DNA from: Patescibacteria group bacterium
GTDB lineage: Bacteria; Patescibacteriota; Minisyncoccia; Phycocordibacterales; DATDSR01
DNA length: 58,776 nt
Assembly: GCA_038062165.1 (NCBI GenBank)
Contig: JBBTXQ010000018.1
Location: forward strand, 1 to 58,776
Direction: 5' to 3'
Position numbers and translations under genes: made by a program. Numbering within the stretch: the stretch's first letter is position 1; each line of letters opens with the position of its first letter. The notes beneath the pieces were generated by a model, which was not told the origin of the DNA, made no database searches, and saw only the letters and a program-made list of their open reading frames with translations. Of this stretch, positions 1 through 43,412 are shown in pieces.

Positions 1-657
1 GAGGGCAAGCACATCAAGCAATCTGGCGGTCGTGGTCAATACGGACATGCGGTTATTACACTGCGTCCCATCAAACCGGGAATTGAGGAACTTAGTGGCA
101 AGGCCGCTAAGTTAAAAAAGAATGTCAAAAGAAGTGACGGTTTCGAATTCGTTAACTCGATTAAGGGTGGTGTAATTCCAAACGAATATATTCCAGCTGT
201 TGAGAAGGGGATTAAAGAGGCAATGGCTAGGGGCATTGTGGCCGGCTTCCCGATGACTAATATTTCAGCCGAACTCACTTTCGGTTCGTATCACGATGTT
301 GACTCAAGCGAGATTGCGTTCAAACTTGCTGGCTCACTTGCTTTCCAAGAAGCGGCCAAGCGCGCCGGCCCGGTTCTGCTTGAACCTATCATGAATGTAG
401 AAGTTATCGTGCCGGAGAAGTTCATGGGCGATATCACTGGCTCGATCTCAAGCAAGCGCGGTCAAGTTGATCAAATTGAAGACAGGCCAGGAGGAGTGAA
501 AGTAATTAAAGCAAAAGTGCCCCTATCAGAAATGTTCGGTTACGTAACTAATTTGCGAAGCATGACTGAAGGTCGTGGCACATTCACCATGACGCCATTC
601 GAGTATCAGATCGTCCCCAAAAACGTAGCCGAAACAATAATTGCCGCCCGCAAATAG
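1..657 (+). CDS. fusA: Elongation factor G, C-terminal fragment (5' end lies outside the window)
   Basis: Frame 1 reads [23 protein letters not shown]... [25 protein letters not shown] and ends at TAG 655-657. It lies in the str-operon position upstream of tuf. Confidence 0.9.
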
Positions 658-661
658 CAAA

Positions 662-688
662 GCACTCCAAGGGCGGCCCTTGGAGTGC
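662..688. terminator. Hairpin between convergent fusA and the orphan gene 706-1029
   Basis: gcactccaagg-gcggc-ccttggagtgc forms a perfect 11-bp stem between two convergent stop codons. Confidence 0.5.
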
Positions 689-705
689 GGATGTCACGAA
701 CAAGA

Positions 706-1029
706 TTAGGTTACTTTCTCGTGTCGTTCGCTCAACTCTCGTCGAGCCCTGACAGCGTCGCGGATCTTGCCCATCGCTTCCGCGACAAGCTTTTCCACCT
801 CGTTCGCTGAAATGCTCACGAACGTGGCATGTTCGATCTGAACGGGGCTCATCCGTTCGCCCGACTCAAGGCCTTCCTGTAGGGTGAGAGCCTTTTGTTC
901 ACGATCGGTGAGACCGGCTTCCCGCATCAGATTCGCGAGCGCCTCCTCTACTACGTGTTCTTTTGCCCCAGACGTGCCGATGCCTAGTCCTCGCAAGAAC
1001 GCGCATCGGTTGCTGTGCGCTGTTTTCAT
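706..1029 (-). CDS. Hypothetical protein (GC-richer orphan, 107 aa)
   Basis: Upstream sequence is cacgAAGGAGGAcggc then ATG, a strong SD. I recognise no family. It is antisense to the str operon. Confidence 0.55.
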   Translation of the reverse strand: MKTAHSNRCAFLRGLGIGTSGAKEHVVEEALANLMREAGLTDREQKALTLQEGLESGERMSPVQIEHATFVSISANEVEKLVAEAMGKIRDAVRARRELSERHEKVT

Positions 1030-1182
1030 GCCGTCCTCCTTCGTGAGTGTTCTGGATGGTTCTGGGTTTTGAAACGACTCGGATTAATGATTGTGACGTT
1101 GTTTTGGTATTAATTTCTTGAATTAAGTTGAATTGGCAAATTAGCAAAAGAGGTGGGCCTGCAAGTTTCGCAGGCCCTGATT

Positions 1183-1617
1183 CTACGAGTAGACTGGCAC
1201 ACGCACTCGTTCGCGCTTGCTCTCGAATTTAATCAAGGCGGCTCTTTGGACCTCCCCGTTTTGAGCATCGTCGTTGATGATGCTGTCGAGGATAATCGGA
1301 CTGAGTTCGCCAGTTTCGATTGCCACAAGGCAAAGCTCTCTGTCTTTCGAGCGAATCATCTGACCAAGTAGCCACGAAACCTTGTTGACCTCAAAGGCTT
1401 GCGACAGTCCGCCTGAGAGCAAGATTGATTTTGCCCTCTCTGGAATAAATCGACAGAACTCACCGTAAACATCCTCATCGTGATTGCGCGGTGGCTTCCA
1501 GCAAAGAACGGCTGAGAAGAGTTGGTGTCGGAGCCATGGCACCCCGCGTTTCATTCCAAGGCGATAAACGAAATTCGCCACTTTCAATTGCAACTCCTTG
1601 CGCAAGATCCTTCTCAT
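1183..1617 (-). CDS. Hypothetical protein (GC-richer orphan, 144 aa)
   Basis: Upstream sequence is gcgaAAGGAGGGtcttagt then ATG. A hairpin (gggcctgc-aagtttc-gcaggccc, 1154-1178) follows the stop. I recognise no family. Confidence 0.55.
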
Positions 1618-1650
1618 ACTAAGACCCTCCTTTCGCTAGACTACCAGAGC

Positions 1651-1679
1651 TTGACTTGTTTTACCAGTTCATATAAGAT
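1651..1679 (+). promoter_or_regulatory. Candidate sigma70-type promoter for tuf
   Basis: TTGACT (1651-1656), 17-nt spacer, TAAGAT (1674-1679). It sits just downstream of the inserted antisense genes. Confidence 0.45.
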
Positions 1680-1794
1680 GCTCGTACTTGTAATTTCGGT
1701 AGGCAAGCTTGCCTGCCGCAGGCAGGTTGGCATTTATAAGTTAGTTAAGACCTCCAATACCCTCTCGGGCAATGAGGCAAAAATAAATAAACAT

Positions 1795-2997
1795 ATGGCA
1801 GAAGCATTTGATCGTTCTAAGCCACACTTAAACGTTGGCACAATTGGTCATGTTGACCACGGCAAGACTACTCTCACCGCGGCTATTCTTCATGTCCTCG
1901 ACATGAATAAGGCGGCAGGTTACGGTGCGCGAGTTGAAGGTATTGACGCAATCGACAAGGCGCCAGAAGAAAAAGCTAGAGGTATTACTATTTCTCTCCA
2001 CCACAGCGAGTACTGGACACCCAAGCGCCACTACGCACACATCGACGCTCCGGGTCATGCCGACTTCATCAAGAACATGATCACCGGTGCCGCCCAGATG
2101 GATGGTGCCATTATCGTGGTAGCCGCCACTGACGGTGTCATGCCTCAAACTCGCGAGCACATCTTACTTGCTCGCCAGGTAGGTGTGAATAAGATCATAG
2201 TCTTCTTAAACAAAGTGGACATGGTTGATGACGCTGAAATGGTTGGTCTCGTAGAAGAGGAAGTGCGCGAACTCTTGACTAAGTATAAATACGACGGTGC
2301 TAACACCCCAATTATCAAAGGCTCAGGCTTGAAGGGCCTTGAAGCTAAGAGTCTTGACGATGAGTGGGCCAAGAAGATTCTTGAACTTGTAGACACTATC
2401 GATACTTATTTCCCAGAACCAGCTCGCGAAATCGACAAGCCATTCTTACTCCCAATTGAAGACATTTTCTCGATTGAAGGTCGCGGTACGGTTGTCACGG
2501 GAAGAATTGAGAGAGGAAAAGTGAAAGTGGGCGAGGAAGTTGAACTCGTTGGTTTCAATCCAACAACTAAGACTACCGTGACCGGCATCGAAATGTTCAA
2601 CAAGCAACTCGATGAAGGCATGGCCGGAGATAACGCCGGTATCCTCCTGCGAGGCTTGAAGAAAGAAGACATAACTCGAGGCCAGGTTATTGCCAAAACA
2701 GGTTCTGTTACCCCTCATACTGATTTCGAAGCTGAAGTTTATGTGCTGACTAAAGAAGAGGGTGGCCGTCACACGCCGTTCTTCAAAGGTTACAAGCCAC
2801 AGTTCTACATTCGCACTACCGATGTGACAGGTGAGATTACTTTGCCAGAGGGCACGGAGATGGTTATGCCCGGCGATACTATTAAAGTGAATGTCAAGCT
2901 CGTGGCCCCTGTAGCCCTTGAAAGCGAACAGCGCTTCGCTATCCGCGAAGGTGGCAAGACAGTTGGGGCAGGTGTAGTAACCAAGATCAATGCCTAG
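1795..2997 (+). CDS. tuf: Elongation factor Tu
   Basis: [38 protein letters not shown] and NKVD GTPase motifs; 400 aa from the ATG at 1795. Confidence 0.95.
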
Positions 2998-3382
2998 TGC
3001 AACTAAAGAAAAAGTTAGTTCTCCTAAAACAAAGAGGACTTCTAAGGCGACCAAGACAGCCGCGGCAAGTTCCGGCATTGGCAAACTGCGAATTAAAGTA
3101 AGCGCTTATGAGCATAAAGTTCTGGACATGAGTGTGCGACAAATCGTTGATACAGCTATCAGACACGAAGGCGAAGTACACGGACCAGTGCCACTGCCCA
3201 CAGAGATCACGCGCTACACAGTAAATAGGGGAGCATTCATAGACAAGAACTCGCGCGAGCAGTTCGAGATGCGAGTACACAAGAGAACACTCGATATCGT
3301 AAATCCTTCCGGAAAAATAATCGAAGCACTTACGAATATCGAACTGCCTTCCGGAGTTGGAATAGATCTGAAAATGATGTAG
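2990..3382 (+). CDS. rpsJ: 30S ribosomal protein S10 with a Lys-rich N-terminal extension of about 30 aa
   Basis: [14 protein letters not shown]...[32 protein letters not shown]. It overlaps the tuf stop by 8 nt. No alternative start lies nearer the conserved core. Confidence 0.9.
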
Positions 3383-3390
3383 GTTTTTTT

Positions 3391-3978
3391 ATGAAATTTT
3401 TAATCGGCCGAAAACAGAATATGGCCCAGATCTTCGATGAGAAGGGCCGAGTAACAGGAGTGACTATTGTTAAACAAGAGCCGCTTAAAGTTACTCAAAT
3501 TAAAACTCTTGAGAAGGATGGCTATGTTGCCACCCAAGTTGGCTTCGGCGTGCAAAAAGAATCCAGAGTAAATAAACCCCAAAGAACTAAAGGTCTGTTC
3601 AAGGGTTTCAAAGAAATTAAAGAAGTTAGTGAGCTCGAAAATTTCCAAGTGGGAGATACTGTCGAGGTTAGTGGCACTAGCAAAGGCAAAGGCTTCCAAG
3701 GGGTGGTCAAGCGACATGGCTTCCACGGTGGCAGACGCAGTCACGGCCAGAAGCATTCAGAACGTGAGCCCGGCTCGATAGGTGGCGCAGGTCGCGCCGG
3801 TGGCCGTGTGGCCAAGGGCATGCGCATGGCCGGCCGCATGGGAGGTGATCGCATTACTGTAAAAAATTTAAAAGTTATCGCAATTGAAGGTGACGACCTG
3901 TATCTGTCGGGCGCCGTGCCCGGGCGCAGAGGCACTTTGTTAGAAATCCGAGGCACGAAGCACGAAACACGAAACTAA
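3391..3978 (+). CDS. rplC: 50S ribosomal protein L3
   Basis: GRKQNMAQIFDEKG...GTSKGKGFQGVVKRHGFHGG, in S10-operon order. Confidence 0.95.
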   Translation: MKFLIGRKQNMAQIFDEKGRVTGVTIVKQEPLKVTQIKTLEKDGYVATQVGFGVQKESRVNKPQRTKGLFKGFKEIKEVSELENFQVGDTVEVSGTSKGKGFQGVVKRHGFHGGRRSHGQKHSEREPGSIGGAGRAGGRVAKGMRMAGRMGGDRITVKNLKVIAIEGDDLYLSGAVPGRRGTLLEIRGTKHETRN

Positions 3979-3979
3979 T

Positions 3980-4609
3980 ATGAACGCGCCACTATACAAT
4001 CAAGAGGGAAAAGATTTAGGGAAGTTGGAGCTTCCGGATAAGATTTTTGGTTTGCCGTGGAATGCTGATCTGGTTCATCAAGTTGTAGTCAGTCAGCAGG
4101 GTAATGCTCGCACTCCTGTGGCGCACGCTAAGGGTAGAGGCGAAGTGCGTGGTGGCGGTAAAAAACCTTGGAAGCAGAAGGGTACTGGCCGTGCTCGTCA
4201 CGGTTCTATTCGCTCACCACTATGGGTAGGAGGTGGCGTAACTCATGGGCCAACAAAAGAGAAAATTTATGCGCGCAAAATAAACAAGAAGATGGCCGCC
4301 AAGGCTTGGGCCACTATTGTCTCGCAAAAGTTGCGAGATGGGGAGGTATTTTTCATAGACAAATTAACATTGTCTGGTATAAAAACTAAATCAGCTTCAA
4401 GTATTATTTCTAACCTATCCAAAAAGTTAGATAAAAAAGAACTCGTTTACAAAAAAGGTAACAGAGCCCTGATTGCTTTGGGCAAGCGCGATAACGTGGT
4501 CGAGAAGAGCTTCCGTAATTTACCAGCAGTTAAAATGATAGAGTGTAGAAATATGAACGCACTCGTTGCCATGACTTACAAATTCATTTTCTTTGTAGAC
4601 TATAAGTAA
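3980..4609 (+). CDS. rplD: 50S ribosomal protein L4
   Basis: HAKGRGEVRGGGKKPWKQKGTGRARHGSIRSPLWVGGG, in operon order. Confidence 0.95.
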   Translation: MNAPLYNQEGKDLGKLELPDKIFGLPWNADLVHQVVVSQQGNARTPVAHAKGRGEVRGGGKKPWKQKGTGRARHGSIRSPLWVGGGVTHGPTKEKIYARKINKKMAAKAWATIVSQKLRDGEVFFIDKLTLSGIKTKSASSIISNLSKKLDKKELVYKKGNRALIALGKRDNVVEKSFRNLPAVKMIECRNMNALVAMTYKFIFFVDYK

Positions 4610-4613
4610 TTTT

Positions 4614-4880
4614 ATGTCAGTTATCAAACGCCAATATCTCACGGAACGCTCTAGTCTTCTTTCAGAAAAAGGCATATATTCTTTCGTTGTCACAAGTGAG
4701 GCAAATAAAAGTGAAATTGCTAAGGCCTTAGAAACTAAATATAAAGTTAAGCCCATAAACGTGCGAGTAATTAATACCAAAGGCAAAGTTGTGGTCAGGG
4801 GTTACAAAAAGGGTCGCAAAGCGGGTATGCGCAAGGCTTATGTTAAATTTCCAGCCGGTACTAAAATAGAATCTGTTTAG
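4614..4880 (+). CDS. rplW: 50S ribosomal protein L23
   Basis: Size, position and KSEIAKALETKYKVKPINVRVIN match L23. Confidence 0.9.
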   Translation: MSVIKRQYLTERSSLLSEKGIYSFVVTSEANKSEIAKALETKYKVKPINVRVINTKGKVVVRGYKKGRKAGMRKAYVKFPAGTKIESV

Positions 4881-4904
4881 TTCGACTACGCTCACTATAA
4901 ATAA
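4878..4904 (+). promoter_or_regulatory. Conserved 27-nt intergenic motif TAGTTCGACTACGCTCACTATAAATAA, copy 1 of 3
   Basis: It begins with the rplW stop codon and ends 2 nt before the rplB ATG. Near-identical copies lie at 14027-14053 and 14444-14470. Confidence 0.5.
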
Positions 4905-5810: not shown

Positions 5811-6095
5811 TCACATCCCCATCCCTCCGTAAGGGGGAGGGTGGTAGGGTGACCTATAGGCTTCCTCGTTGGCCTTCTTTATCGCTGCGGCAATCCGGAG
5901 CTGCTCGTCTTCTGGCAGTCCAGAGAACCACACCTCGAGCTCGCGCACTGCGCGCATGCCGAGGTAGACAAGGGCGACCCCGCCGAGAGCGAGAACAACC
6001 CAGAATCGCCACCAGCTCTCCACGTTGTAGAACGCCCCGGTAAGTGTCCCCACAGTTACCGCGGCGGCAAGCACGACGTAGCCGATTGTTCTCAT
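5811..6095 (-). CDS. Hypothetical small membrane protein (GC-rich orphan, 94 aa)
   Basis: Two hydrophobic helices (IGYVVLAAAVTVGTLTGAFY, FWVVLALGGVALVYLGM). A purine-rich SD-like AAGGGGG lies upstream. A hand count gives 35/60 G+C in 5811-5870. Confidence 0.55.
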   Translation of the reverse strand: MRTIGYVVLAAAVTVGTLTGAFYNVESWWRFWVVLALGGVALVYLGMRAVRELEVWFSGLPEDEQLRIAAAIKKANEEAYRSPYHPPPYGGMGM

Positions 6096-6448: not shown

Positions 6449-6815
6449 TCCCGAGGGGAGGGATCATCAGTACTGATCTCCCCCCGGGGCAAGTGCTCTC
6501 ACGACACCAATTGGTGCGTGATAGGTCTTTGAGGCTAATCCCGACATTCTGTCGGGACGCCCGATCAAAAACACAGTTTTTGATTTAGGGAGGTCTTTAT
6601 GTGCGTGAGGCGTTGTGAGTTGCCGTGGGTGCCCGGTTCGTCTGACCCGTGTAGCATCCCGGAGCATCTCCGAGGCAGTGCCCCAAGCGAACCTGGCCCT
6701 GACTCCAGAGAGGAGGAGGTTTCCCGGCGTGAGGACGGGTTGTCTACACCCGGTCCAGCCTATTTCCCCGAGGGTGCTCTCTAGCTTCACCCCCTCCGAC
6801 ATCTGTCGGAGGGGC
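6449..6815. repeat. GC-rich cluster of local hairpins/palindromes (non-coding)
   Basis: Hairpins at about 6449-6489, 6500-6520, 6539-6558 (tcccgaca-ttc-tgtcggga), 6562-6586, 6734-6752 and 6789-6812 (cccctccgaca-tc-tgtcggagggg). The string tttccc(c)gaggg...gtgctctc recurs at both ends. Confidence 0.4.
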
Positions 6816-6858: not shown

Positions 6859-6936
6859 TCCCGTTAGAAGCTTCGGGATTCACGCCACCATGCTACATAT
6901 TATCAACGCCAAATATAGTGTTAGCTTCTAACGGGA
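6859..6936 (+). repeat. Start-codon hairpin element, copy 1 (13-bp stem TCCCGTTAGAAGC / GCTTCTAACGGGA)
   Basis: Perfect 13-bp stem. The 3' arm ends on the A of the pepA ATG. ATGAG flanks both sides (6854-6858 and 6936-6940). Confidence 0.6.
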
Positions 6937-8294
6937 TGAGAATAATTAACAAAGACAAGTTAGGGAAAGGCCTGCCTGCCGGCAGGCAGGAGTACAAAAA
7001 GGCTGATTTTAAGGACGCAAATAGCTTGCGTAAATTTGTTTTGGCTGTACGCAAGGCTGTGGCTGATGCCAAGAAAGACAAGATGAAAAAAGTGGCAGTT
7101 ATCCTGAAAGAGATTCACAAGTTCGGGATTGGCGAGAGAGAATTGGGTGAGATAATTGCTCGCGAGGTACTGATTGCTGATTATGAATTTACTAAATACT
7201 TGAGCAAGCCAAAAGAGGGCTGGAGCTTTATTTCTGGATTTGCTCTTATCGGTAAAGTTAGTAAGGAGTTTAAGGTGGGAATTGAGAGGGGCAAAATAAT
7301 TGCGGGAGAAGTTAACATGACTCGCGAGCTGGCTAATACTCCGGGTGGCGAGATGGTTCCCAAGACTCTTGCCTTAGCCGCTCGAGAAGCAGTTAAAGAT
7401 TTGCCCAACACAAAAATAACAGTACTTGGCAAAAAGGAACTTGAGAAGCTGGGGATGGGAGCAGTGCTCGGTGTAGCCAAGGGCTCGCCAGAAGAGCCGC
7501 AATTTATTGTTGTGGAGTATCGCCCCCTAGCCCCCTCTTATGATAAGAGGGGGAACAAAGGGGGAGATATCGTTCTGGTTGGCAAAGGCGTGACCTTCGA
7601 TACTGGGGGACTCAATCTCAAGCCTACTGATGGCATTAACGACATGCACTTGGATATGTCCGGTGGTGCGGCTGTGATACACGCTGTTGCACTTGCTGCT
7701 AAACTTGGTGTGAAGAAAAATATAGTGGCGCTTGTGCCCGCGGTTGAGAACATGCCCGGAGGTTACTCATATAGACCCGGCGATATTCTTAAGTCGTTAT
7801 CTGGCAAAACTATTGAGATCAAAAATACTGATGCTGAAGGCAGAGTAATTCTCGCCGACGCTCTCACCTACGCCAAGAAGTTTAACCCAAGATTAGTTAT
7901 TGATGTCGCAACTCTAACTGGCGCGGCTTGTGTCGCCCTTGGCGAACGCGCCTCGGCTATCTTCACGCGTGATCAAGAGCTTGAAAAGTTGACGAGGGAA
8001 CTGGGAGAGAAGTCAGGCGATTATGTTTGGCCGATGCCCATGTGGGAAGAGTATGAGAGTGAAGTGAAGGGAACATTCGGCGATGTAGCTAATCTTGGCA
8101 AGAAGGGCAGGATGGGCGGAGCAATCTCGGGCGCAATGTTCTTACTGCAATTCACCAAAGATTACCCCAAAAGTACAAAGTGGATGCACATAGACATGGC
8201 CCCCACAATGACAGCTACAGACGACGAGTTTCTAGCCAAAGGAGCCAAAGGCAGTCCCGTCAAGCTCCTGCTTGCCTTGATTGAGAGTTACTGA
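6936..8294 (+). CDS. pepA: Leucyl aminopeptidase (M17 family)
   Basis: VLVGKGVTFDTGGLNLKP and NTDAEGRVILADAL M17 signatures. I prefer the ATG at 6936 over the GTG at 6918 because the same cttctaacgggATG junction precedes rplV and rplN. Confidence 0.9.
   Translation: MRIINKDKLGKGLPAGRQEYKKADFKDANSLRKFVLAVRKAVADAKKDKMKKVAVILKEIHKFGIGERELGEIIAREVLIADYEFTKYLSKPKEGWSFISGFALIGKVSKEFKVGIERGKIIAGEVNMTRELANTPGGEMVPKTLALAAREAVKDLPNTKITVLGKKELEKLGMGAVLGVAKGSPEEPQFIVVEYRPLAPSYDKRGNKGGDIVLVGKGVTFDTGGLNLKPTDGINDMHLDMSGGAAVIHAVALAAKLGVKKNIVALVPAVENMPGGYSYRPGDILKSLSGKTIEIKNTDAEGRVILADALTYAKKFNPRLVIDVATLTGAACVALGERASAIFTRDQELEKLTRELGEKSGDYVWPMPMWEEYESEVKGTFGDVANLGKKGRMGGAISGAMFLLQFTKDYPKSTKWMHIDMAPTMTATDDEFLAKGAKGSPVKLLLALIESY
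7518..7569. repeat. 52-nt nested palindromic element inserted in frame in pepA
   Basis: tatcgccccct-ag-CCCCCTCTTA-tg-ATAAGAGGGGGA-acaa-agggggagata. All four blocks (44 nt) are identical to recG 45293-45342. Confidence 0.7.
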
Positions 8295-8317: not shown

Positions 8318-8548
8318 GTGTATAATATGAAAGTGAAAACACTTAACTGGACAAACGTAATAAAGAAATACAAGGGACTATGGGTTGGATTCAAGAACGA
8401 CAACAGGACCGTTATCGCTTCTGGTAGAACTCCAGCTGAAGTTATTAAGAAGGCAAAAAGTAGCGGATATGAAAATCCAATACTTTTCAGAGTGCCCAGC
8501 AGGCTAGTTGCCTTCGTTGGGATAATAGATGAAATTTCCATACGCTAA
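8318..8548 (+). CDS. DUF5678-like small protein (the ATG at 8327 is a possible start)
   Basis: KYKGLWVGFKNDNRTVIASGRTPAEVIKKAKSSGYENPILFRVP fits the KGKWVAI...a-helix...RVP pattern of DUF5678 proteins, as recalled from memory. Confidence 0.65.
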   Translation: MYNMKVKTLNWTNVIKKYKGLWVGFKNDNRTVIASGRTPAEVIKKAKSSGYENPILFRVPSRLVAFVGIIDEISIR

Positions 8549-8936
8549 ATTTGGTAGAGTTGGGAGTGAAATTATTAAACGCCCCGTTGTTCCAATTGAA
8601 GTTAAATTTGAAGATGAAACCGTCCTTTACGATGCCTTGATAGACTCCGGAGCGGATATTTGTATATTCGATGCTGCAATTGGCGAACAACTTGGTATCA
8701 ACATAATTTCTGGAATCCCAATTGTTTTTGGTGGAGCTGAATATTCCAAGGGTTCTGCGGCATATTTGCATCAAGTCAAAATAAAGATTAAAAATAAAGA
8801 AATAAAAACGCAAGTTGCCTTTACATACAACATCGCTAACCATGGTCATGGCCTTTTGGGGCAAAAAGGGTTTTTCGATAAATTTGCAATCAAATTTGAT
8901 TATTCCAATGATGTTGTAGATATTAGTTCCAGATAA
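8529..8936 (+). CDS. Retropepsin-like (clan AA) aspartic protease
   Basis: Catalytic LIDSGAD motif plus downstream GLLGQKGFF. 135 aa. It overlaps the preceding small gene by 20 nt. Confidence 0.75.
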   Translation: MKFPYAKFGRVGSEIIKRPVVPIEVKFEDETVLYDALIDSGADICIFDAAIGEQLGINIISGIPIVFGGAEYSKGSAAYLHQVKIKIKNKEIKTQVAFTYNIANHGHGLLGQKGFFDKFAIKFDYSNDVVDISSR

Positions 8937-9033: not shown

Positions 9034-9288
9034 CTAAAGGTTCCCGGTCTCGTCTTTGATTTTCTCCATTATTCGCACTGGAATCGCATTTTCCTTAAGA
9101 CAGTCACACTTATCAAGTTGTGTGCCAGCAAGTTTGCTGGCATGTGGTAATTGCCATTCCATATTAAGCGTTTGGCGGTCTCTAATTCGCAACAAAGGCA
9201 AGTGCCTTACGCCGTTGCAAACGATGTAGTGATAGCACTCACCGGCCTGATAAGCTAGGAATACCCGTATTTCCGAATTTCCTTCCAT
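9034..9288 (-). CDS. Hypothetical protein (orphan, 84 aa)
   Basis: aaGAGGAGGAGGT lies immediately upstream of the ATG. A hairpin and T-run follow the stop. I recognise no family. Confidence 0.5.
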   Translation of the reverse strand: MEGNSEIRVFLAYQAGECYHYIVCNGVRHLPLLRIRDRQTLNMEWQLPHASKLAGTQLDKCDCLKENAIPVRIMEKIKDETGNL

Positions 9289-9740: not shown

Positions 9741-9760
9741 GAAGTAATAAGTAATATGAA

Positions 9761-9841
9761 TCCCATTAGAAGTATGTCTCAATTAAGTCACTGCGATATG
9801 TCAGGCGTATATACAATTAACGTAAGTAACTTCTAACGGGA
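9761..9841 (+). repeat. Start-codon hairpin element, copy 2
   Basis: TCCCATTAGAAGT...ACTTCTAACGGGA. ATGAA flanks both sides (9756-9760 and 9841-9845). A uORF runs 9756-9836. Confidence 0.6.
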
Positions 9842-10173
9842 TGAAAGCGAGTTTAAACAATTATAGGCAAGCTCCACGAAAAGTCAGATTAGTAACAGAT
9901 CTTATTAAGGGCAAGAGCGTAGAGAAAGCCAAAACAGAACTTGCGCATCTCTCTAAACGCGCTTCTACGCCTATTCTTAAACTTTTAAATTCAGCGATTG
10001 CTAACTCAAATTTAAATTTAAATGAGAGTGATAAAAATAACTTGTTTATAAAAAGTATTAGCGTAGACAAAGGGATTGTCTTGAAAAGGAGTATGCCACG
10101 CGCTCATGGTCGCGCATTTCCAATACACAAGCACACGTCGCACATCAAGTTAGAATTAGCCAGAAAATCATGA
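9841..10173 (+). CDS. rplV: 50S ribosomal protein L22
   Basis: NYRQAPRKVRLVTDLIKGKSVEKA...MPRAHGRAFPIHKHTSHI. Confidence 0.9.
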   Translation: MKASLNNYRQAPRKVRLVTDLIKGKSVEKAKTELAHLSKRASTPILKLLNSAIANSNLNLNESDKNNLFIKSISVDKGIVLKRSMPRAHGRAFPIHKHTSHIKLELARKS

Positions 10174-10529
10174 GTCATACAGTACATCCATACGCACATA
10201 GATTAGGAATTTTGCGAGACTGGAAGAGTCGCTGGTTCGTGGCGCGCATCAAGAAGCCTCTTTACAGACAGAATTTGAAAGCCGATGTGATGTTGCGCGA
10301 GACACTTGAAAAAGAGTTGCGTGCTTTCCTTGTTGATTCTATCGAAATTGAAAGAGGAGAGAATTATTTGAGAGTGATAGTGAAAACTGCCAGACCGGGT
10401 TTGATAATTGGTCGCTCCGGTGAAGGTTCAAATAAGCTCAAAGAGACTATTGTAAAAAGATTAAGAAAGTTAGGCGCCAATATTCCAAGAGATGTGCGTT
10501 TGCAGATTGAAGAGGTGCGCTCTCCCTAG
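10170..10529 (+). CDS. rpsC: 30S ribosomal protein S3, N-terminal (KH) part, ending at an in-frame TAG
   Basis: VHPYAHRLGILRDWKSRWF...ARPGLIIGRSGEGSNKL...QIEEVRSP then TAG at 10527-10529. Confidence 0.85.
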   Translation: MSHTVHPYAHRLGILRDWKSRWFVARIKKPLYRQNLKADVMLRETLEKELRAFLVDSIEIERGENYLRVIVKTARPGLIIGRSGEGSNKLKETIVKRLRKLGANIPRDVRLQIEEVRSP

Positions 10530-10544
10530 AGTCATGCCCAAATT

Positions 10545-10865
10545 GTGGCGCACATGATTGAAGAGGCCATAGAAAAGCGCACACCATTTAGACGCACTCT
10601 CAAACAGAGTATTGAGAAGATTATGGCTAATAAAGACGTTAAGGGAGTGAAGATTACACTTTCGGGTAGACTGGACGGTTCAGAAATGGGTCGGGTTGAG
10701 TCGCTCATGAAGGGGCGTTTGCCATTGCAAACTCTGCGAGCCGATATTGACTTCGCAAAGGGCCGAGCTCGCATGCCTTACGGAGATATTGGCATAAAGG
10801 TTTGGATTTATAGGGGAGAGATATTTGCTGAAACGCAAAACGCAAAACGCAAAACGCAAAATTAA
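10545..10865 (+). CDS. rpsC: 30S ribosomal protein S3, C-terminal part (same frame as 10170-10529)
   Basis: IEEAIEKRTPFRRTLKQSI...GVKITLSGRLDGSEMGR...LPLQTLRADIDFAKGRA...GIKVWIY. GTG 10545 and ATG 10554 are the only possible restarts. Confidence 0.85.
   Translation: MAHMIEEAIEKRTPFRRTLKQSIEKIMANKDVKGVKITLSGRLDGSEMGRVESLMKGRLPLQTLRADIDFAKGRARMPYGDIGIKVWIYRGEIFAETQNAKRKTQN
10834..10861 (+). repeat. Heptanucleotide tandem repeat (CGCAAAA x4)
   Basis: Four perfect 7-nt units in the last codons of rpsC, 6 nt upstream of the rplP ATG. Confidence 0.8.
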
Positions 10866-10866
10866 T

Positions 10867-11292
10867 ATGGGAATGTTGGTACCAAAAAAAGTTAAATATA
10901 GGAAGTGGCACACGATGCGTCGTAACCCAAAACGCGTGGGCCTAGATAGTCGTGGCACGGAATTATCTTTCGGGTCATTTGGTTTGCAAGCACTTTCGGC
11001 CGGGCGAATTAAGTCTAATCAACTTGAAGCATCAAGGAAAGCGATGTCGCGGGTCATTAAGAAGACAGGCAAAATTTGGATTCGCGTTTTTCCAGATATG
11101 CCGTATACTGCTAAGCCCGCGGAAGTGAAGTTAGGTAAGGGCAAGGGTGATGTGCAAGGTTATGTTGTGCCAGTTCGTGCCGGGAGAGTTCTGTTTGAAG
11201 TTGAGGGTTTAACGGAGTTAGAGTCGCGAGATGTTCTGCGTAAGGCTGGCTCTAAACTGCCGGTCAAGACTAAAATAATTGTTAGAGCATAA
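10867..11292 (+). CDS. rplP: 50S ribosomal protein L16 (start at ATG 10867 or 10873)
   Basis: MLVPKKVKYRKWH...IWIRVFPDMPYTAKPAEVKLGKGKG. Confidence 0.9.
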   Translation: MGMLVPKKVKYRKWHTMRRNPKRVGLDSRGTELSFGSFGLQALSAGRIKSNQLEASRKAMSRVIKKTGKIWIRVFPDMPYTAKPAEVKLGKGKGDVQGYVVPVRAGRVLFEVEGLTELESRDVLRKAGSKLPVKTKIIVRA

Positions 11293-11304
11293 TGCGAGTA
11301 AAGT

Positions 11305-11541
11305 ATGGAAGACACAAAAACAAAACATAAAATGTCTGGGATAGTAGTGGGAGACAAAATGAACAAGACTCGAGTCGTTTCTGTTGAACGTTTCGCTAAG
11401 CATCCCAAATACGGCAAGTTCATTCACACCAGTAAAAAGTACAAAGCTCACGATGAAACTAACTCAACCCATGTTGGTGATAAAGTGACTATAGAAGAAT
11501 GCCGGCCTATCTCACGCGATAAGCATTTCAGAATTGTATAA
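11305..11541 (+). CDS. rpsQ: 30S ribosomal protein S17
   Basis: [29 protein letters not shown]...[21 protein letters not shown]. It follows rplP after 12 nt, leaving no room for rpmC. Confidence 0.9.
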
Positions 11542-11621
11542 TCCCATTAGAAGTATAGTTATATAATGTCAATAAACATGTCAAATTTACACACAATTAA
11601 CGTAAGTAACTTCTAACGGGA
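11542..11621 (+). repeat. Start-codon hairpin element, copy 3
   Basis: It has the same arms as copy 2 and the shared internal block ACAATTAACGTAAGTAACTTCTAACGGG. It starts right after the rpsQ TAA and ends on the A of the rplN ATG. Confidence 0.6.
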
Positions 11622-11989
11622 TGATTCAACCACGAGCAATAGTAAAAATAGCTGACAACACCGGAGCCAAAATTGGGCGTATTTTCAAAGTGCTCGGCGG
11701 TTCTAAACGCAGATACGCTCGCGTAGGCGATTTGGTTGTGCTATCTGTCCAAACAGCCGAACCTCGTAAGATGGCCAAGAAGAAGGAAGTGCATAGGGCC
11801 GTGGTTGTGAGGCAAAGGGCCAACATGCGCCGTTCTGACGGATCTTATATCAGGTTTGATGAGAATGCAGTTGTGCTAGTTGACGTTAAGAATGAACCTA
11901 AAGGAGCACGTGTTTTCGGTCCTGTGCCTAGAGAGTTAACAGAAATGGGATTCCAGAAGATAGCCTCACTTGCGCCAGAGATTGTATAA
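11621..11989 (+). CDS. rplN: 50S ribosomal protein L14
   Basis: [17 protein letters not shown]...[10 protein letters not shown]. Confidence 0.95.
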
Positions 11990-12254: not shown

Positions 12255-12780
12255 TGTTAAGGCACAATTTGAAAAGTCTATCCCAGCCCTAATGAAAGAT
12301 TTGGGGGTGACTAATAAACTTGCCTTGCCAAGATTGGAAAAAGTGATTGTTTCCGTTGGTACGGGCTCTTTCAAAGACAAAAAGAAAATTGATGTGGTTA
12401 TGGATCGTCTGGCTAAGATCACTGGTCAGAAACCGGCTCGAACAGTGGCCAAGAAATCTATTGCCACGTTCAAGTTGCGCGCCGGCGATCCGGCTGGAGC
12501 CAAAGTAACACTGCGAGGCGCACGTATGAATGACTTTTTGAATCGCTTGATCAACGTAGCTATCCCACGTGAACGAGACTTCAGGGGCCTTAAAGAGAGC
12601 TCTGTAGACGAAATGGGCAATCTCTCAATAGGCTTCAAAGAACACACTATTTTCCCCGAGACCGCTGATGAAGACCTAAAAGATGTGTTCTCGTTCGGTA
12701 TAACCATAGCTACCACGGCAAAGAATAAGAAAGAAGCCTTGGCACTTTTCCACGCTCTCCACTTCCCATTTAAGAAGTAG
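12247..12780 (+). CDS. rplE: 50S ribosomal protein L5
   Basis: [14 protein letters not shown]...[19 protein letters not shown]...[14 protein letters not shown]. Confidence 0.95.
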
Positions 12781-12813
12781 TCTACTATAATTTTTACAGA
12801 GGAGGACCCGGCC

Positions 12814-13017
12814 ATGTCTCTCCGATTTGCTGTGGAAATTCCAGAACCAACGCCCCGCAATGTGGTTACGACCACCCAGATGAAATGTGGTCATGTCCAC
12901 GAATGTCTGGGTGATGCCCATCAGGCGATCTGTGGTGCGTATGTATGCCGTGCTCATGATTACGTTCATCGCTTCTGCACGGCTACGTACTGCGTTGCCA
13001 GGATCCCCCAGACATAG
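12814..13017 (+). CDS. Hypothetical Cys/His-rich small protein (orphan, 67 aa)
   Basis: GAGGAGGA lies 7 nt upstream of the ATG, and the gene has its own terminator at 13045-13075. A hand count gives 31/60 G+C in 12814-12873 against 25/60 in rplX 12001-12060. Confidence 0.5.
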   Translation: MSLRFAVEIPEPTPRNVVTTTQMKCGHVHECLGDAHQAICGAYVCRAHDYVHRFCTATYCVARIPQT

Positions 13018-13044
13018 CGCGCAACACACTCACTCCAGCATGCC

Positions 13045-13075
13045 CCCGTAGCGGTTCGCCGCTACGGGTTTTTTA
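13045..13075 (+). terminator. Rho-independent terminator
   Basis: cccgtagcgg-ttcg-ccgctacggg followed by tttttt. Confidence 0.75.
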
Positions 13076-13120
13076 TTCACGCAAATTATGGTATAACCGA
13101 AGAAGGAGGATCTCCATAAA

Positions 13121-13324
13121 ATGAGAACCAGAACTCGCGGCAAATGGAAGTGCGGTGGAGTCTGCAAACGGATGCTAGAATCAAGTGACGTTCGCAATCT
13201 AACGAAATGCGGCAAGACAGTCTGTAACGACTGTTTCCCACGCCACAAGATCTGTCAGAGAGGCAAGTGCATGGCCGGTTCGCAAGCGGCCAGCCACGGC
13301 CACGAAAACGCCACCGGCGACTAG
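13121..13324 (+). CDS. Hypothetical Cys-rich (zinc-ribbon-like) small protein (orphan, 67 aa)
   Basis: AAGGAGGA upstream. CGGVC...C..C and CNDC...C pairs. A hairpin aatgttcgagcc-ccg-gcctcgaacatt follows the stop. Confidence 0.5.
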   Translation: MRTRTRGKWKCGGVCKRMLESSDVRNLTKCGKTVCNDCFPRHKICQRGKCMAGSQAASHGHENATGD

Positions 13325-13391
13325 CCACCCAAAATGTTCGAGCCCCGGCCTCGAACATTTCCCCGTGCGGGTAGGAAGAAAGGAGAACTAG

Positions 13392-13628
13392 ATGACTCCA
13401 GAGGAAAGTCAGGCTTTACGAGATAGGGCCCTCCAGTTGTTCGCGGAAAAGAGAAATATGGATGCCGACGATCTTTCTAACAGGCTTGGTCAGACCAGTC
13501 ACGTTGCTCTGGTTGTAATCAAGCAATTGGAGAAAGATAATTTTGTTCGCGTCTCGCCCAAGCAACCCGGCGAGCATCATCCAGACGAGTTAAGTCAGTA
13601 CAGTGTAGTCTACGGAATCTCGCTTTAG
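13392..13628 (+). CDS. Hypothetical small protein, possibly winged-helix (orphan, 78 aa)
   Basis: AAAGGAG lies 6 nt upstream of the ATG. A hairpin ccccgtagtaa-gcttcgc-ttactacgggg follows the stop. Confidence 0.55.
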   Translation: MTPEESQALRDRALQLFAEKRNMDADDLSNRLGQTSHVALVVIKQLEKDNFVRVSPKQPGEHHPDELSQYSVVYGISL

Positions 13629-13683
13629 GTTTCACTTCTTTACCCCGTAGTAAGCTTCGCTTTACTACGGGGTTGCTCTTTTT

Positions 13684-13741
13684 GGGCTAAATCCGCCTCT
13701 GGCGGATCGCCCGAACATTACTTTTGCAATGTTTTAGGGGG
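13684..13741 (+). repeat. Two-hairpin GGGCTAAATC...AATGTTTTAGGGG element, copy a
   Basis: gggctaaATCCGCCtctGGCGGATcgcccgAACATTacttttgcAATGTTttagggg. It is homologous to 28101-28165, and both stems carry compensatory changes. Confidence 0.55.
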
Positions 13742-13752
13742 TGTGATAGGAT
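13724..13752 (+). promoter_or_regulatory. Candidate promoter restarting rpsZ/spc transcription
   Basis: TTGCAA, 17-nt spacer, TAGGAT, with the same gtgaTAGGATa box as at 9343-9348. Confidence 0.35.
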
Positions 13753-13843
13753 AAAGGGGTTCTAAGAATAGTCTCGCTAGACTGCCTGGCAGGTCCGGGT
13801 AAGTGGCGGGACCAAAATTATTCTTCAATTTCATTCAGAACAA

Positions 13844-14029
13844 GTGGCAAAAAAGAGCACAATTGCACGGTCGAAACGGACGCCTAAGTACAAAAGTCGC
13901 GTGGTGCGACGTTGTTTCAGATGCGGCCGCAAACGCGCTTATATGCGTGACTTTGACATGTGTAGGATATGTTTCCGCGAGGCGGCAAATGAAGGACGTA
14001 TCCCCGGCATTAGAAAAGCATCGTGGTAG
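13844..14029 (+). CDS. rpsZ: 30S ribosomal protein S14, type Z (zinc-binding); GTG start
   Basis: MAKKSTIARSKRTPKYKSRVVRRCFRCGRKRAYMRDFDMCRICFRE; 61 aa with CxxC...CxxC. Confidence 0.9.
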   Translation: MAKKSTIARSKRTPKYKSRVVRRCFRCGRKRAYMRDFDMCRICFREAANEGRIPGIRKASW

Positions 14030-14053
14030 TTCGACTGCGCTCACTATAAATAA
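14027..14053 (+). promoter_or_regulatory. Conserved 27-nt intergenic motif, copy 2
   Basis: TAGTTCGACTGCGCTCACTATAAATAA. It starts at the rpsZ stop codon, and the rpsH ATG follows 3 nt later. Confidence 0.5.
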
Positions 14054-14056
14054 ACT

Positions 14057-14446
14057 ATGGATCAAATTTCTGACATGTTAATTAGAATCAAGAATGCCGG
14101 TAGCGCCCGGCAGGATTCTACAATTGTGCCTTATTCTAAACTTAAGTTTGAGATTGCGAATGTTCTATTGAGTGAAAGTTATATCAAATCTTTTTCGGTT
14201 AAAGGTAAAAAAGTACGCAAGCACATAGAAGTAGAAATTGCTTATCGAGACGATGGCTCTGTTCGCATAACTGATGTTAATCGCATTTCTAAATTATCAA
14301 GACGCGTTTATCTTGGTGCTAAAGATATCAGACCCGTTAAACAGGGCACTGGCCTGCTCGTGCTCTCTACCCCCAAGGGTATCCTGTCAGGCAGAGATGC
14401 CCGCAAGCAGATGGTCGGAGGTGAAGCGTTATTTAGTATCTGGTAG
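14057..14446 (+). CDS. rpsH: 30S ribosomal protein S8
   Basis: DQISDMLIRIKNAGSAR...GTGLLVLSTPKGILSGRDARK. Confidence 0.95.
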   Translation: MDQISDMLIRIKNAGSARQDSTIVPYSKLKFEIANVLLSESYIKSFSVKGKKVRKHIEVEIAYRDDGSVRITDVNRISKLSRRVYLGAKDIRPVKQGTGLLVLSTPKGILSGRDARKQMVGGEALFSIW

Positions 14447-14470
14447 TTCGACTACGCTCACTATAAATAA
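14444..14470 (+). promoter_or_regulatory. Conserved 27-nt intergenic motif, copy 3
   Basis: TAGTTCGACTACGCTCACTATAAATAA. It starts at the rpsH stop codon, and the rplF ATG follows 2 nt later. Confidence 0.5.
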
Positions 14471-23709: not shown

Positions 23710-23982
23710 ATGGACATGAGGGATCTAACTAAAGTTGATATGAGTGGCATATCTAAGAATGGTCAAAAGATTTATGCCAAGCTAAGCAAGGAGTACAAGC
23801 GTAAGAACAAAGGCAAGTACATTGCCGTCAATGTTAAAAATGGTGAGATTTTTAAGGCTGATAGAACTGCAGAGGCGGTACAGAAAGCTTTAAAAAAATA
23901 TCCAAACGAAGTCTTTTATGCCGTACGGGTGGGATATTCTGTTGTTGAAACTCTGGGTAGTTTCGGTGTCCGAATTGAATAA
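23710..23982 (+). CDS. DUF5678-like small protein (second copy of this type)
   Basis: KGKYIAVNVKNGEIFKADRTAEAVQKALKKYPNEVFYAVRVG has the same architecture as 8318-8548. Confidence 0.6.
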   Translation: MDMRDLTKVDMSGISKNGQKIYAKLSKEYKRKNKGKYIAVNVKNGEIFKADRTAEAVQKALKKYPNEVFYAVRVGYSVVETLGSFGVRIE

Positions 23983-24366
23983 ATGATTAGAGGTTATTTC
24001 GACAATAATAGACCTCACATTCCTTTGACTATTGGCTGGGGGCCGTCGGTAGAAGATACTTTCGTCCTGGTGGATACCGGTTTTAATGGTGAAATAAAGA
24101 TAACTCCTGAAAACGCAAAACGACTTGAGCTCAACATTACGCATGATGAGACAGTTGGTCTAGCAAATGGGCAGCGTGTCAGTATGTCAGCCGCACTAAT
24201 TTATGTAGACATGGGCGGATCAATTGGCGTTGTAAATGCGATCATTGCCCCAGGCGACACAGTTATAGGCGTTAACCTAATGAAAAAGTTCGCCTGCCTC
24301 CTTACCGCCAATTTCAAAACCTCAACCCTCCGCCTCAAACCACAACCTGCGAAACGAACCAGTTGA
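23983..24366 (+). CDS. Retropepsin-like (clan AA) aspartic protease (second copy)
   Basis: VLVDTGFNG catalytic motif and TVIGVNLMKKF. It starts on the base after the stop of the preceding small gene. Confidence 0.7.
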   Translation: MIRGYFDNNRPHIPLTIGWGPSVEDTFVLVDTGFNGEIKITPENAKRLELNITHDETVGLANGQRVSMSAALIYVDMGGSIGVVNAIIAPGDTVIGVNLMKKFACLLTANFKTSTLRLKPQPAKRTS

Positions 24367-27233: not shown

Positions 27234-27346
27234 CTTGACTTAGGTAAGAAAGTGTGTATAATTGGGGGTAGAGGTAAAGTAGAAGGTTGGGATACCAAAA
27301 AAATAACGAGGTCGATAACGGCCCGTCAGAAGTAAGGAGCCCACCA

Positions 27347-27703
27347 ATGAGTTTGAAAAGTCTTTTCAAGAAACTCGCTCTCGCCGTGCGAGTGCCGCGG
27401 GAATTGCTCATGGGCAAGACGCATGAGCCCAGGGTGTTTGAGTCTGATTTGTCCTCCAACCCGAACCACTACGAGCTCTCGGCACATCTGGGTTACCAGT
27501 GTGCAGATATCCCGGAGCCGTTGCCGGGCCGCCACGAGGTCACGCTCTGTGCTACTCTCCAGAAGGTGGAGGACGAGAGAGCTGTGGAAGAGGCGCGTGT
27601 TGCGGCAGAGCGAGATGAATCGCTCATTGCCCTGCGCAAGTTCTGGGCAAGAGTTGAGGAGGGCAAGGCCCACTCGGCCCATGCGGTGGCGGCGAGAAGA
27701 TAA
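27347..27703 (+). CDS. Hypothetical protein (GC-richer orphan, 118 aa)
   Basis: TAAGGAG lies 7 nt upstream of ATG 27347. A hairpin gggctc...gagccc (27713-27740) follows the stop. I recognise no family. Confidence 0.5.
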   Translation: MSLKSLFKKLALAVRVPRELLMGKTHEPRVFESDLSSNPNHYELSAHLGYQCADIPEPLPGRHEVTLCATLQKVEDERAVEEARVAAERDESLIALRKFWARVEEGKAHSAHAVAARR

Positions 27704-40746: not shown

Positions 40747-40819
40747 GGGCGTGTAGCTCAGTTGGTAGAGCGTTCGTCTTATACACGGAGGGTTCTTGGT
40801 TCGAGTCCAAGCGGGTGGA
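40747..40819 (+). pseudogene. tRNA-Ile(UAU)-like gene with a non-complementary acceptor stem
   Basis: The D-arm, anticodon arm (TTCGT-CTTATAC-ACGGA) and T-arm (CTTGG-TTCGAGT-CCAAG) all fold. However, the 5' GGGCGTG faces the 3' CGGGTGG, giving 3 mismatches. Its first 25 nt are identical to the tRNA at 43315. Confidence 0.5.
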
Positions 40820-43126: not shown

Positions 43127-43314
43127 AGTGAGTATCCCGAACTCCATGGGCTACCTATTCGACAATTTCGTAGGCCGTATATTAAGAAAGCTACGTTTAA
43201 ATCACTTACTTACAAGGGAGGTTTTGGTCACGGTACCCGTAATGTTATGATTAGCAACGCGGGTTTGATGAGGAAGATTATGATGGGGTTACAGGTGTTG
43301 AAAGATCACTTTAT

Positions 43315-43387: not shown

Positions 43388-43412
43388 TTAGCCAAACTCG
43401 GACTCTTTTTTG

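Follow-up and report, generated by a model that had tools for sequence, protein, structure and literature searches.

Shine-Dalgarno-led orphan mini-genes in junctions of the ribosomal-protein cluster of a Patescibacteria bacterium

Introduction

In the Bacteroidia, ribosomes hide their anti-Shine-Dalgarno (anti-SD) sequence, and the Shine-Dalgarno (SD)-led rpsU gene is translated by ribosomes deficient in bS21 (PMC7797042, PMC9976891, PMC13000453). In the Parcubacteria the anti-SD motif was found in only 48% of 16S genes, according to the passages of PMC9297842 that deal with this motif. Here we describe a contig from a Patescibacteria group bacterium whose genes fall into two classes by their translation signals. 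The contig, analysed over its whole length of 58.8 kb and referred to below as the window, has a G+C content (GC) of 44.5%. Our focus is the 1.06-kb region between rplE and rpsZ (12781-13843), where three of the window's twelve SD-led orphan genes lie inside the ribosomal-protein cluster.

According to the contig names, the DNA comes from Hainich groundwater (well H51, 0.1-µm fraction). Because the nearest relatives are metagenome-assembled genomes of Paceibacteria (Parcubacteria), we assign the window to a bacterium of the candidate phyla radiation (CPR). CPR bacteria have reduced ribosomes and, to our knowledge, translation initiation in them is almost unstudied. Integration hot spots, or genomic islets, between conserved core genes are reportedly known from other bacteria, and Oliveira et al. 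are said to have described examples in 2017.

Results

Three mini-genes between rplE and rpsZ

The rplE/rpsZ gap holds three open reading frames (ORFs) on the forward strand, exactly where the initial annotation had placed them: o12814 (12814-13017), a 67-residue Cys/His-rich orphan; o13121 (13121-13324), 67 residues with seven cysteines; and o13392 (13392-13628), 78 residues with a predicted winged-helix fold. The ATG of each is the earliest start codon past the upstream stop. Each is preceded on the same strand by an SD, GAGGAGGA at 12799-12806, AGGAGGA at 13104-13110 and AGGAG at 13381-13385, whose calculated duplex energies of -12.2, -12.6 and -11.7 kcal/mol bear out the strength first claimed for them: random 20-mers of the window average -2.6 kcal/mol and only 4.4% of them reach -8. 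The spacers between SD core and start codon measure 6 to 12 nucleotides (nt).

Upstream of the first gene, a sigma-70-type promoter-like sequence, TTCCCA-17-TATAAT (12763-12791, forward; 10 of 12 consensus matches), overlaps with the stop codon of rplE; the end of its -10 box lies 22 nt 5' of the o12814 ATG. All three genes are followed by a hairpin on the forward strand, as was proposed. The intrinsic terminator after o12814 (13045-13078) consists of a 10-bp GC-rich stem (hairpin 13045-13068) and a T-run, and the one after o13392 (13642-13673) of 13 pairs and a T-rich tail, whereas the hairpin ATGTTCGAG...CTCGAACAT after o13121 (13335-13359) lacks a T-run. Farther downstream, the promoter-like TTGCAA-17-TAGGAT that had been noted before rpsZ is present at 13724-13752 on the forward strand, but it is weak, with 8 of 12 matches, and falls below the scan threshold. 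The rpsZ leader 3' of this site is conserved in part in L093, one of the three nearest relatives. The rpsZ gene itself (S14; 13844-14029, forward) is the first core gene past the island and starts at a GTG without an SD. At a permissive threshold, Rfam matched no RNA family within 12700-13900.

Two translation-signal regimes and two compositions

The contrast between the mini-genes and rpsZ extends through the window. Duplex energy with the 16S anti-SD tail averages -11.8 kcal/mol over the 12 orphans, ten of which lie at -11.7 or lower, whereas the 32 core and ordinary accessory genes of the window's first half average -0.9, with none below -5.5. A motif scan of the whole window found an SD at a single annotated gene start, that of pilO (GGAGG, 12-nt spacer). 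Among first-start ORFs of at least 50 codons, energies of -10 or lower occur in 10 of the 60 outside annotated genes and in 1 of the 223 that overlap them (Fisher p = 9e-7). A density count that allowed any internal start was set aside (3.2 versus 3.8 per 10 kb), as it is swamped by in-frame sites in long genes. The orphans also differ in composition, with a GC of 0.535 against 0.436 for 67 other genes and a third-position GC (GC3) of 0.581 against 0.428 (Mann-Whitney p about 1e-6). Thus the initial annotation was right that the core genes lack an SD, that the orphans are GC-richer and that two signal regimes and two compositions coexist in one genome.

Chance frames in GC-rich non-coding spacers, or a chimeric metagenome assembly, could in principle give such a picture: the source is a metagenome-assembled genome, one orphan (o6599) is low-complexity, another (o51576) is frameshifted, and one assembly shows clustered substitutions. 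However, shuffling the seven islands gave a mean of 0.7 SD-led ORFs (maximum 4 in 300 shuffles) against 10 observed, and alternative ORFs overlapping the orphans in the same GC-rich spacers have no SD, so GC-richness alone is not the source of the signal. The junctions themselves recur at 99.6-100% identity in Logan contigs from runs ERR3858113 and ERR3858114, in European Nucleotide Archive contigs (two replicates) and in the NCBI co-assembly GCA_964367285.1 (89 kb). This agreement of separate assemblies excludes mis-assembly, a concern raised at the outset. With conservation at the protein level across genomes and the high-confidence fold of o706 added, the artefact explanation is largely refuted and hardly credible.

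Genes outside the orphan set have a different upstream profile. Before 47 non-orphan genes, A makes up 45-62% at five of the six positions from -9 to -4, and G at most 15% across -9 to -1. A TATAAT-like box ends 3-8 nt before the ATG in 8 of 47 non-SD genes compared with 3.5% of all ATGs (p = 2e-4; examples at 32575, 42470, 50109 and 30984), which hints that leaderless mRNAs may occur among them; a leaderless mRNA would be expected to have a -10 box that ends about 5-7 nt ahead of its start codon. The lack of an SD is shared by the relatives. For the ribosomal-protein genes of about 68 Patescibacteria loci, fetched with L5, SD energies average between about +0.6 and -3.6 kcal/mol, as random sequence would; the measure is validated by ten non-Patescibacteria loci, mostly proteobacterial, which gave -5 to -7.7 kcal/mol in the same run. 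Ribosomal-protein genes without an SD in these relatives fit what the passages of PMC9297842 say of the motif.

Two repeated leader cassettes also recur 5' of core genes. One, ending in GTAACTTCTAACGGG directly before the ATG, lies at 9759-9843, 11540-11623 and 6860-6938; its last 12 nt are complementary to CCCRTTAGAAG about 50 nt upstream. It precedes unrelated genes (rplV, rplN, pepA and pilT) and is kept in relatives, at L090:12951-12980, before rplV and rplX in L093 and before rplN in L094. The repeat could serve as a translation-start element independent of the SD, or it could be a mobile leader cassette. The other repeat, GTAGTTCGACTRCGCTCACTATAAATAA, abuts the ATG of rplB, rpsH and rplF (4876-4904, 14025-14053 and 14442-14470) and includes a -10-like TATAAA at 5-6 nt from the start codon.

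Homologues keep the SD at the same junctions

Orphan status is extreme. When clusters at 90% identity were looked up for ten orphans, eight were single-sequence and two added only a near-identical variant. Among 5.8 billion proteins, o13392 has no homologue except a strain variant. Among 1.8 billion representatives, o1183 has one true homologue (P0014, E = 4.7e-9), found on L085; a second candidate, P0013, was rejected as a repetitive false match. Billion-scale profile searches returned the L085 protein alone for o706 and only the query itself for o13121.

The homologues that do exist occupy the same junctions. L085, a 4.9-kb contig of another CPR genome (Logan SRR22045392), carries homologues of both o1183 and o706 in its fusA/tuf gap. 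The o706 homologue (37% identity) adjoins that of o1183, and both run antisense to the operon as in the window, with their order swapped. L093 has ribosomal proteins that are on average 73% identical to those of the window. Its 1.3-kb rplE/rpsZ gap contains three units with promoters, SDs and terminators, one of which encodes an o13121 homologue (44% identity, seven of seven cysteines conserved). A 61-residue Cys-rich ORF in the same L093 junction weakly resembles o12814, a hint only, from a single comparison (E = 0.003). SD-led ORFs with an o6599-like N terminus lie 5' of pepA in L092 and L093. When all orphans were compared by phmmer with stop-to-stop segments of 161 loci, copies of this genome left out, the same three links were found and no others.

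Since homologues at 30-44% identity, with flanks that can no longer be aligned, have a strong SD in each member of the pair (-11.0 to -15.2 kcal/mol), the SD appears to be under selection and hence to be used. In L093, too, the GC of island ORFs exceeds that of the core (0.53-0.57 versus 0.476), and likewise in L085. By these comparisons, the class, or at least a portion of it, is probably old in the clade, fast-evolving and reshuffled. Conservation in synteny, which the initial annotation had named as grounds for doubting a foreign source, was thus found in part, and the GC excess is a property of this clade, not of relatives in general.

These observations bear on the origin that the initial annotation suggested, repeated acquisition from a phage, a plasmid or another host. 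In its sharper form this holds that the genes came recently and repeatedly from an SD-using, GC-richer bacterium, phage or plasmid, and that SD and GC are donor signatures not yet ameliorated. The excess in GC and GC3 is what it predicts, as are a canonical promoter-SD-terminator kit unlike that of the host's genes, the extreme orphan status and the several orphans without a counterpart in the nearest relatives. Reverse transcriptases (L085, L007), an IS200-like gene and toxin-antitoxin pairs occupy the same hot spots in relatives, and DNA uptake would be compatible with the window's type IV pilus genes and with its ComF-like protein, which has a Pribosyltran domain and weakly matches a double zinc ribbon. 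However, no donor emerged from PHROGs (ten orphans), PADLOC (five) or viral contigs (three families), nor did the 5.8-billion or 1.8-billion set yield a non-CPR protein for the three families searched there. Homologues instead sit in CPR genomes at the same junctions, at 30-44% identity and with the SD kept, which indicates that the genes have resided in the clade for long or circulate in it. No SD precedes the other mobile-type genes of the host (HicAB, AbiE, RelB/YafQ, restriction-modification and GIY-YIG), so the SD is not simply the mark of anything mobile. We therefore find outside acquisition unsupported as proposed and, in its recent and repeated form, on the whole unlikely. The alternative offered alongside it, a dedicated and differently translated gene class, is favoured by the syntenic homologues that keep their SD.

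Hot spots at fixed junctions of the cluster

The left end of the window runs fusA (3' end), tuf, rpsJ, rplC-D-W-B, a 3.6-kb insert and rpsS-rplV-rpsC-rplP-rpsQ-rplN-X-E; after the region under study it continues with rpsZ-rpsH-rplF-R-rpsE-rplO-secY-adk-map-ndk. Among the relatives, gaps of more than 300 bp concentrate at four junctions of this order: rplB/rpsS (32 of 45 loci, largest 4.7 kb, 4673 bp), rplE/rpsZ (33 of 60, range 9 to 5961 bp), secY/adk (24 of 44, largest 2.9 kb) and rpsJ/rplC (13 of 32, largest 3.6 kb). Such gaps occur in a minority of loci at tuf/rpsJ, rplD/rplW and adk/map (3/40 to 7/64) and in at most one locus each at twelve other junctions. At rplP/rpsQ, the gaps in relatives are filled by the L29 gene. 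Because the relatives' large gaps cluster at rplB/rpsS and rplE/rpsZ, the window's islands there are part of hot spots shared across the lineage.

Content between the same conserved flanks varies from genome to genome, as in chromosomal hot spots generally. Besides orphans, the relatives carry a varied cargo there, with toxin-antitoxin pairs, an IS200-like gene, a methyltransferase and reverse transcriptases (a retron-type enzyme in L085, a reverse-transcriptase-like ORF in L007). Reverse-transcriptase or IS200-like genes are thus sometimes present in relatives, while in the window no integrase, tRNA or other mobility gene adjoins the islands.

Proteins encoded by the orphans

No orphan gave a match over curated thresholds in Pfam, PHROGs (ten orphans) or PADLOC (five), with weak zf-RING_5 and MarR matches as the only hints. 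The initial statement that none belongs to a recognisable family was nevertheless slightly overstated, as two have recognisable folds. The o706 model (mean predicted local distance difference test, pLDDT, 90.6) matched sigma factors or isolated region 4 in all 50 structural matches listed. Against isolated region-4 domains the target-normalised TM-score is 0.76-0.87, with weak E-values of about 0.1. A sigma-70 factor would be recognised by regions 2 and 4 and a Pfam match; o706 has no Pfam sigma-70 match and does not qualify. Because the listed structural matches are all sigma factors or region 4, it is best described as a predicted stand-alone region-4-like helix-turn-helix protein.

The o13392 model (pLDDT 76.8) has the order H1-b-H2-H3-b-b of a winged helix, and its top structural matches are MarR-family chains. 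Its Pfam MarR score is 17 bits against a cut-off of 24.6, and the dimerisation helices are missing, so we describe it as a predicted minimal winged helix that shares the MarR/ArsR fold, with no clear family membership. Codons 13-22 of this gene (13429-13457) carry 8 substitutions in 29 nt between two assemblies of the same population, with six codons amino-acid-changing and one silent. The rest of the 12-kb overlap of the assemblies is identical, except for one rpsC codon and a 200-nt rpsE tract whose 34 changes are without exception synonymous. The clustered differences suggest that helix 1 of the putative winged helix carries a local allele or a conversion tract.

Several orphans are Cys-rich, as first noted: o13121 is probably zinc-binding, and o13121, o12814 and o51217 are probably metal-binding to judge from their cysteines. 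Of the membrane proteins claimed with them, only o5811 looks like one, a small protein with about two membrane helices as judged by eye from its hydrophobic stretches. Overall, the predicted folds make the orphan proteins look like small regulators.

Small genes in pairs and triplets with DNA-binding folds, sigma-region-4-like and winged helix, might alternatively be regulatory, toxin-antitoxin-like or defence/anti-defence modules of integrated mobile elements. On this view SD and GC would be incidental, and the genes would be selfish addiction or immunity genes able to persist at hot spots. Relatives' hot spots are rich in toxin-antitoxin genes, and the o706 and o1183 homologues in L085 adjoin a retron-type reverse transcriptase and a 243-residue ORF that is nuclease-like by eye only. 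Yet no PADLOC, Pfam toxin/antitoxin or PHROG family is matched, the units are monocistronic with their own terminators where overlapping two-gene operons would be expected, the o706/o1183 order is swapped between genomes, and integrase and transposase genes are absent next to the window's islands. We consider this explanation quite improbable.

A type II toxin-antitoxin module was considered separately and rejected, on the lack of a Pfam or PADLOC match and the separate SD and terminator of each ORF. The L085 fusA/tuf gap spans 4.2 kb (267-4508); its 243-residue ORF is SD-led, reads as PD-(D/E)xK nuclease-like by eye and matches nothing in Pfam or PADLOC.

Further orphan units

The remaining nine units are similarly built and, as the initial annotation held, lie as self-contained genes in intergenic slots of conserved clusters, half of all orphans being antisense. 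Ten of the eleven ORFs on its list have a strong SD at their start; the exception is the TTG-started ORF at 51576-51878, and one unit (o6599) is additional. In the fusA/tuf gap, on the reverse strand, lie o706 (706-1029), which encodes the 107-residue region-4-like helical protein, and o1183 (1183-1617; 144 residues), both SD-led. The rplB/rpsS island opens with o5811 (5811-6095, reverse; 94 residues, G-rich SD, GC 0.61), and o6599 (6599-6784, forward) is a 61-residue SD-led ORF 5' of pepA. Immediately 5' of rpsS lies the SD-led o9034 (9034-9288, reverse, antisense; 84 residues).

Elsewhere, o27347 (27347-27703, forward; 118 residues, SD AAGGAG, GC 0.585) is preceded by a strong sigma-70-type promoter, TTGACT-16-TATAAT (27235-27262, forward; 11 of 12 matches). 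It is flanked by mltG and a GIY-YIG gene, with the transfer-messenger RNA (tmRNA) gene farther downstream. A TTG start and the SD GGAGGT characterise o51217 (51217-51540, forward), a 107-residue CxxC...CxxC orphan. The o51576 unit (51576-51913, reverse) has a sigma-70-type promoter, TTGACA-16-TAGAAT, an SD GGAGG with an ATG at 51913, and a 100-residue ORF at 51576-51878. That ATG opens an 11-codon frame one base out of register with the ORF, so that the unit is either a frameshifted SD-led gene or reflects a sequence error. Finally, o55851 (55851-56243, reverse), SD-led and 130 residues long, lies between pilM and the RelB/YafQ pair.

Promoters score 10-11 of 12 for three units (o27347, o51576 and o12814), and a strong GC-rich hairpin lies within about 40 nt downstream of 11 of the 12 orphans (-18 to -29 kcal/mol in a 70-nt fold). 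Beyond the window's left edge, the NCBI contig shows a further 2-kb island in the rpsG/fusA gap (L086:12462-14132), with two paralogous SD-led orphans of 62 and 105 residues, both with an H-x3-C-x2-C motif. The island also contains a PaaX/Cas2-like-domain protein whose gene has no SD, and a 59-residue zinc-ribbon ORF. An anti-sigma-like zf-HC2 reading of the two paralogues found no Pfam support. The right extension of the same contig, which holds pilus genes, contains no SD-led orphans.

Other features of the window

Farther right, the window contains toxin-antitoxin pairs, AbiE, three small GIY-YIG genes, an intein-bearing ftsH, recG, a restriction-modification methylase/specificity gene, type IV pilus genes and tmRNA. 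The ftsH gene (35619-40175) encodes 1518 residues with intein splicing and LAGLIDADG domains, and recG (43727-46330) has an internal PD-(D/E)XK_3 nuclease domain. A tRNA-like sequence at 40747-40813 is 76% identical to tRNA-Ile(TAT) at 43314-43388; it is probably a degraded duplicate, since its Rfam match is partial and ARAGORN makes no call.

The ribosomal-protein cluster lacks an L30 gene between rpsE and rplO. The rplP/rpsQ junction (11292-11305) is a 12-bp gap without an L29 (rpmC) gene; this gap measures 231-256 bp in all three nearest relatives (L092-L094), with a median of 253 bp over 64 relatives, and carries an L29-sized ORF in more distant ones. In rpsC (10170-10865), an in-frame TAG at 10527-10529 cuts S3 into two ORFs. 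The codon is GAG (Glu) in another assembly, and the NCBI contig has an intact 231-residue gene call. The TAG reflects either variation in the population or an error in the sequence.

A gene pair, probably a mobile two-gene module, encodes a DUF5678 protein and a retropepsin-like aspartyl protease. It occurs twice, at 8318-8936 and 23710-24366, and again in the secY/adk hot spot of L033. The 33-nt palindrome CCCCCTCTTATGATAAGAGGGGG lies in frame within pepA (7523-7555) and, in opposite orientation, within recG (45300-45332). It encodes an extra ...PLAPSYDKRG... in one protein and ...PSPSYGKRG... in the other, and the L093 pepA is without it. In its insertion into coding sequences it is similar to the Rickettsia palindromic elements.

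Discussion

The reading that we favour, at roughly even probability, is that the orphans are real, independently expressed protein genes of a fast-evolving, lineage-restricted accessory pool, translated through their SD and located at operon-boundary hot spots. Such a pool would occupy the few permissive positions of the str-S10-spc ribosomal cluster, probably transcription-unit boundaries, and other intergenic slots. Each unit would bring a sigma-70-type promoter or rely on upstream read-through, followed by a strong SD, the ORF and a terminator hairpin. Housekeeping and ordinary accessory genes would start without an SD, from A/U-rich leaders, repeated structured leaders and probably leaderless mRNAs, so that SD pairing would serve a second translation regime for a class of small proteins. 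Those members that could be resolved are predicted to bind DNA or metal (sigma-region-4-like, winged helix and Cys-rich). Turnover would come from recombination between the highly conserved flanking genes, by which cassettes are reshuffled or replaced, and the pilus and ComF-like genes would be compatible with DNA uptake here too.

Several points weigh against this reading. Long residence does not account for the persistent GC-richness, for which biased gene conversion at recombination hot spots and a clade-specific mobile pool are candidate causes. A search for the conserved 3'-end motif showed no 16S gene in the window or in any of 171 loci, and if the anti-SD is absent here, as the motif rate of 48% in the relevant passages of PMC9297842 would allow, the SD cannot work as proposed. 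In about 70 more distant relatives, SD-led ORFs are just mildly enriched in the gaps (2.1% versus 0.8%, p = 0.002) and are not GC-richer, so the pronounced form of the phenomenon is confined to this genome and its near relatives. Clear homologues exist for just three families. Content also turns over, as o13392, o5811 and o9034 have no counterpart in the nearest relatives, and recent gain is possible for six orphans because these three and o27347, o51217 and o55851 have no homologues. Function is assigned from folds alone, and the low-complexity o6599 may not be a protein.

A different use of the SD, which we think rather unlikely, is that in this Paceibacteria clade it has changed from the general ribosome-binding site into a selective switch: a conserved regulon of small regulators and zinc proteins, located at ribosomal-operon boundaries, would be translated only when the anti-SD is exposed. 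For ordinary mRNAs, translation would then rely on SD-blind or SD-independent ribosomes or on leaderless transcripts, and exposure would come with a ribosome sub-population or state, for example a missing platform protein, stress or host contact. If true, CPR bacteria would have their own version of the Flavobacterium bS21/rpsU circuit, covering a whole class of fast-evolving accessory genes.

Returning to the favoured accessory pool, a clade whose housekeeping genes ignore the SD while a conserved accessory set keeps a strong one raises the question of whether SD pairing is still used, and for what. The ribosomal-protein cluster, usually taken as the most rigid stretch of a genome, has in Paceibacteria fixed hot spots where accessory genes come and go. 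There are practical consequences as well. Gene callers trained on a single type of ribosome-binding site for each genome will misplace starts in one of the two classes or overlook it, and the islands can disturb ribosomal-protein marker sets extracted by synteny.

Comparison with known systems

Integration hot spots resemble these junctions in that variable orphan or mobile-type content lies between the same pair of core genes in many genomes. They differ in that the islets here measure only 0.4 to 6 kb, are found within the ribosomal-protein super-cluster, have no integrase or tRNA attached and carry cargo with its own type of translation signal. Integron cassettes are likewise small, mostly orphan ORFs, each followed by a hairpin and shuffled in order between genomes, but the units here are dispersed, have their own promoters and lack an integrase, attI and a shared attC-like core. 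A cassette array was rejected because no recombinase is present among the Pfam-annotated genes of the window and the units lie on both strands at seven or more sites, and attC sites because the downstream hairpins share no sequence family. Phage morons share the autonomous promoter-gene-terminator build, the deviating GC and the position between unrelated genes; here, however, there is no PHROG or viral-contig match and no adjoining phage gene. A prophage remnant or moron was rejected on the PHROGs result (0 of 10) and on empty scans of 2.9 million viral contigs with three family profiles.

The anti-SD loss in part of the Parcubacteria (Tsurumaki et al. 2022, PMC9297842) concerns the same major lineage; the passages on it deal with the rRNA motif and do not mention a retained SD-led class. 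If the anti-SD is absent in this genome, that class becomes harder, not easier, to explain.

By analogy, the nearest known parallel to two regimes in one cell is the SD-blind translation of the Bacteroidia (Flavobacterium johnsoniae rpsU; PMC7797042, PMC9976891, PMC13000453, PMC13000457). There, too, ordinary genes lack an SD and are A-rich upstream, a small minority of genes has a strong or extended SD, and two initiation regimes share one cell; in the window, ordinary genes are without an SD in the same way (0 of 32, with pilO as the exception). The lineages differ, ours being CPR, and so do the genes: the SD-led gene of F. johnsoniae is rpsU, which is autoregulated, whereas here the SD leads a dozen orphan accessory genes, the SD-led genes seen in the window being orphans and rpsU and prfB lying outside it. 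Sequestration of the anti-SD by bS21, bS18 and bS6 has been shown in the Bacteroidia, whereas an anti-SD in the genome described here is putative. Hot-spot accessory genes and dual translation regimes are both of known kinds, and here they would meet in CPR bacteria.

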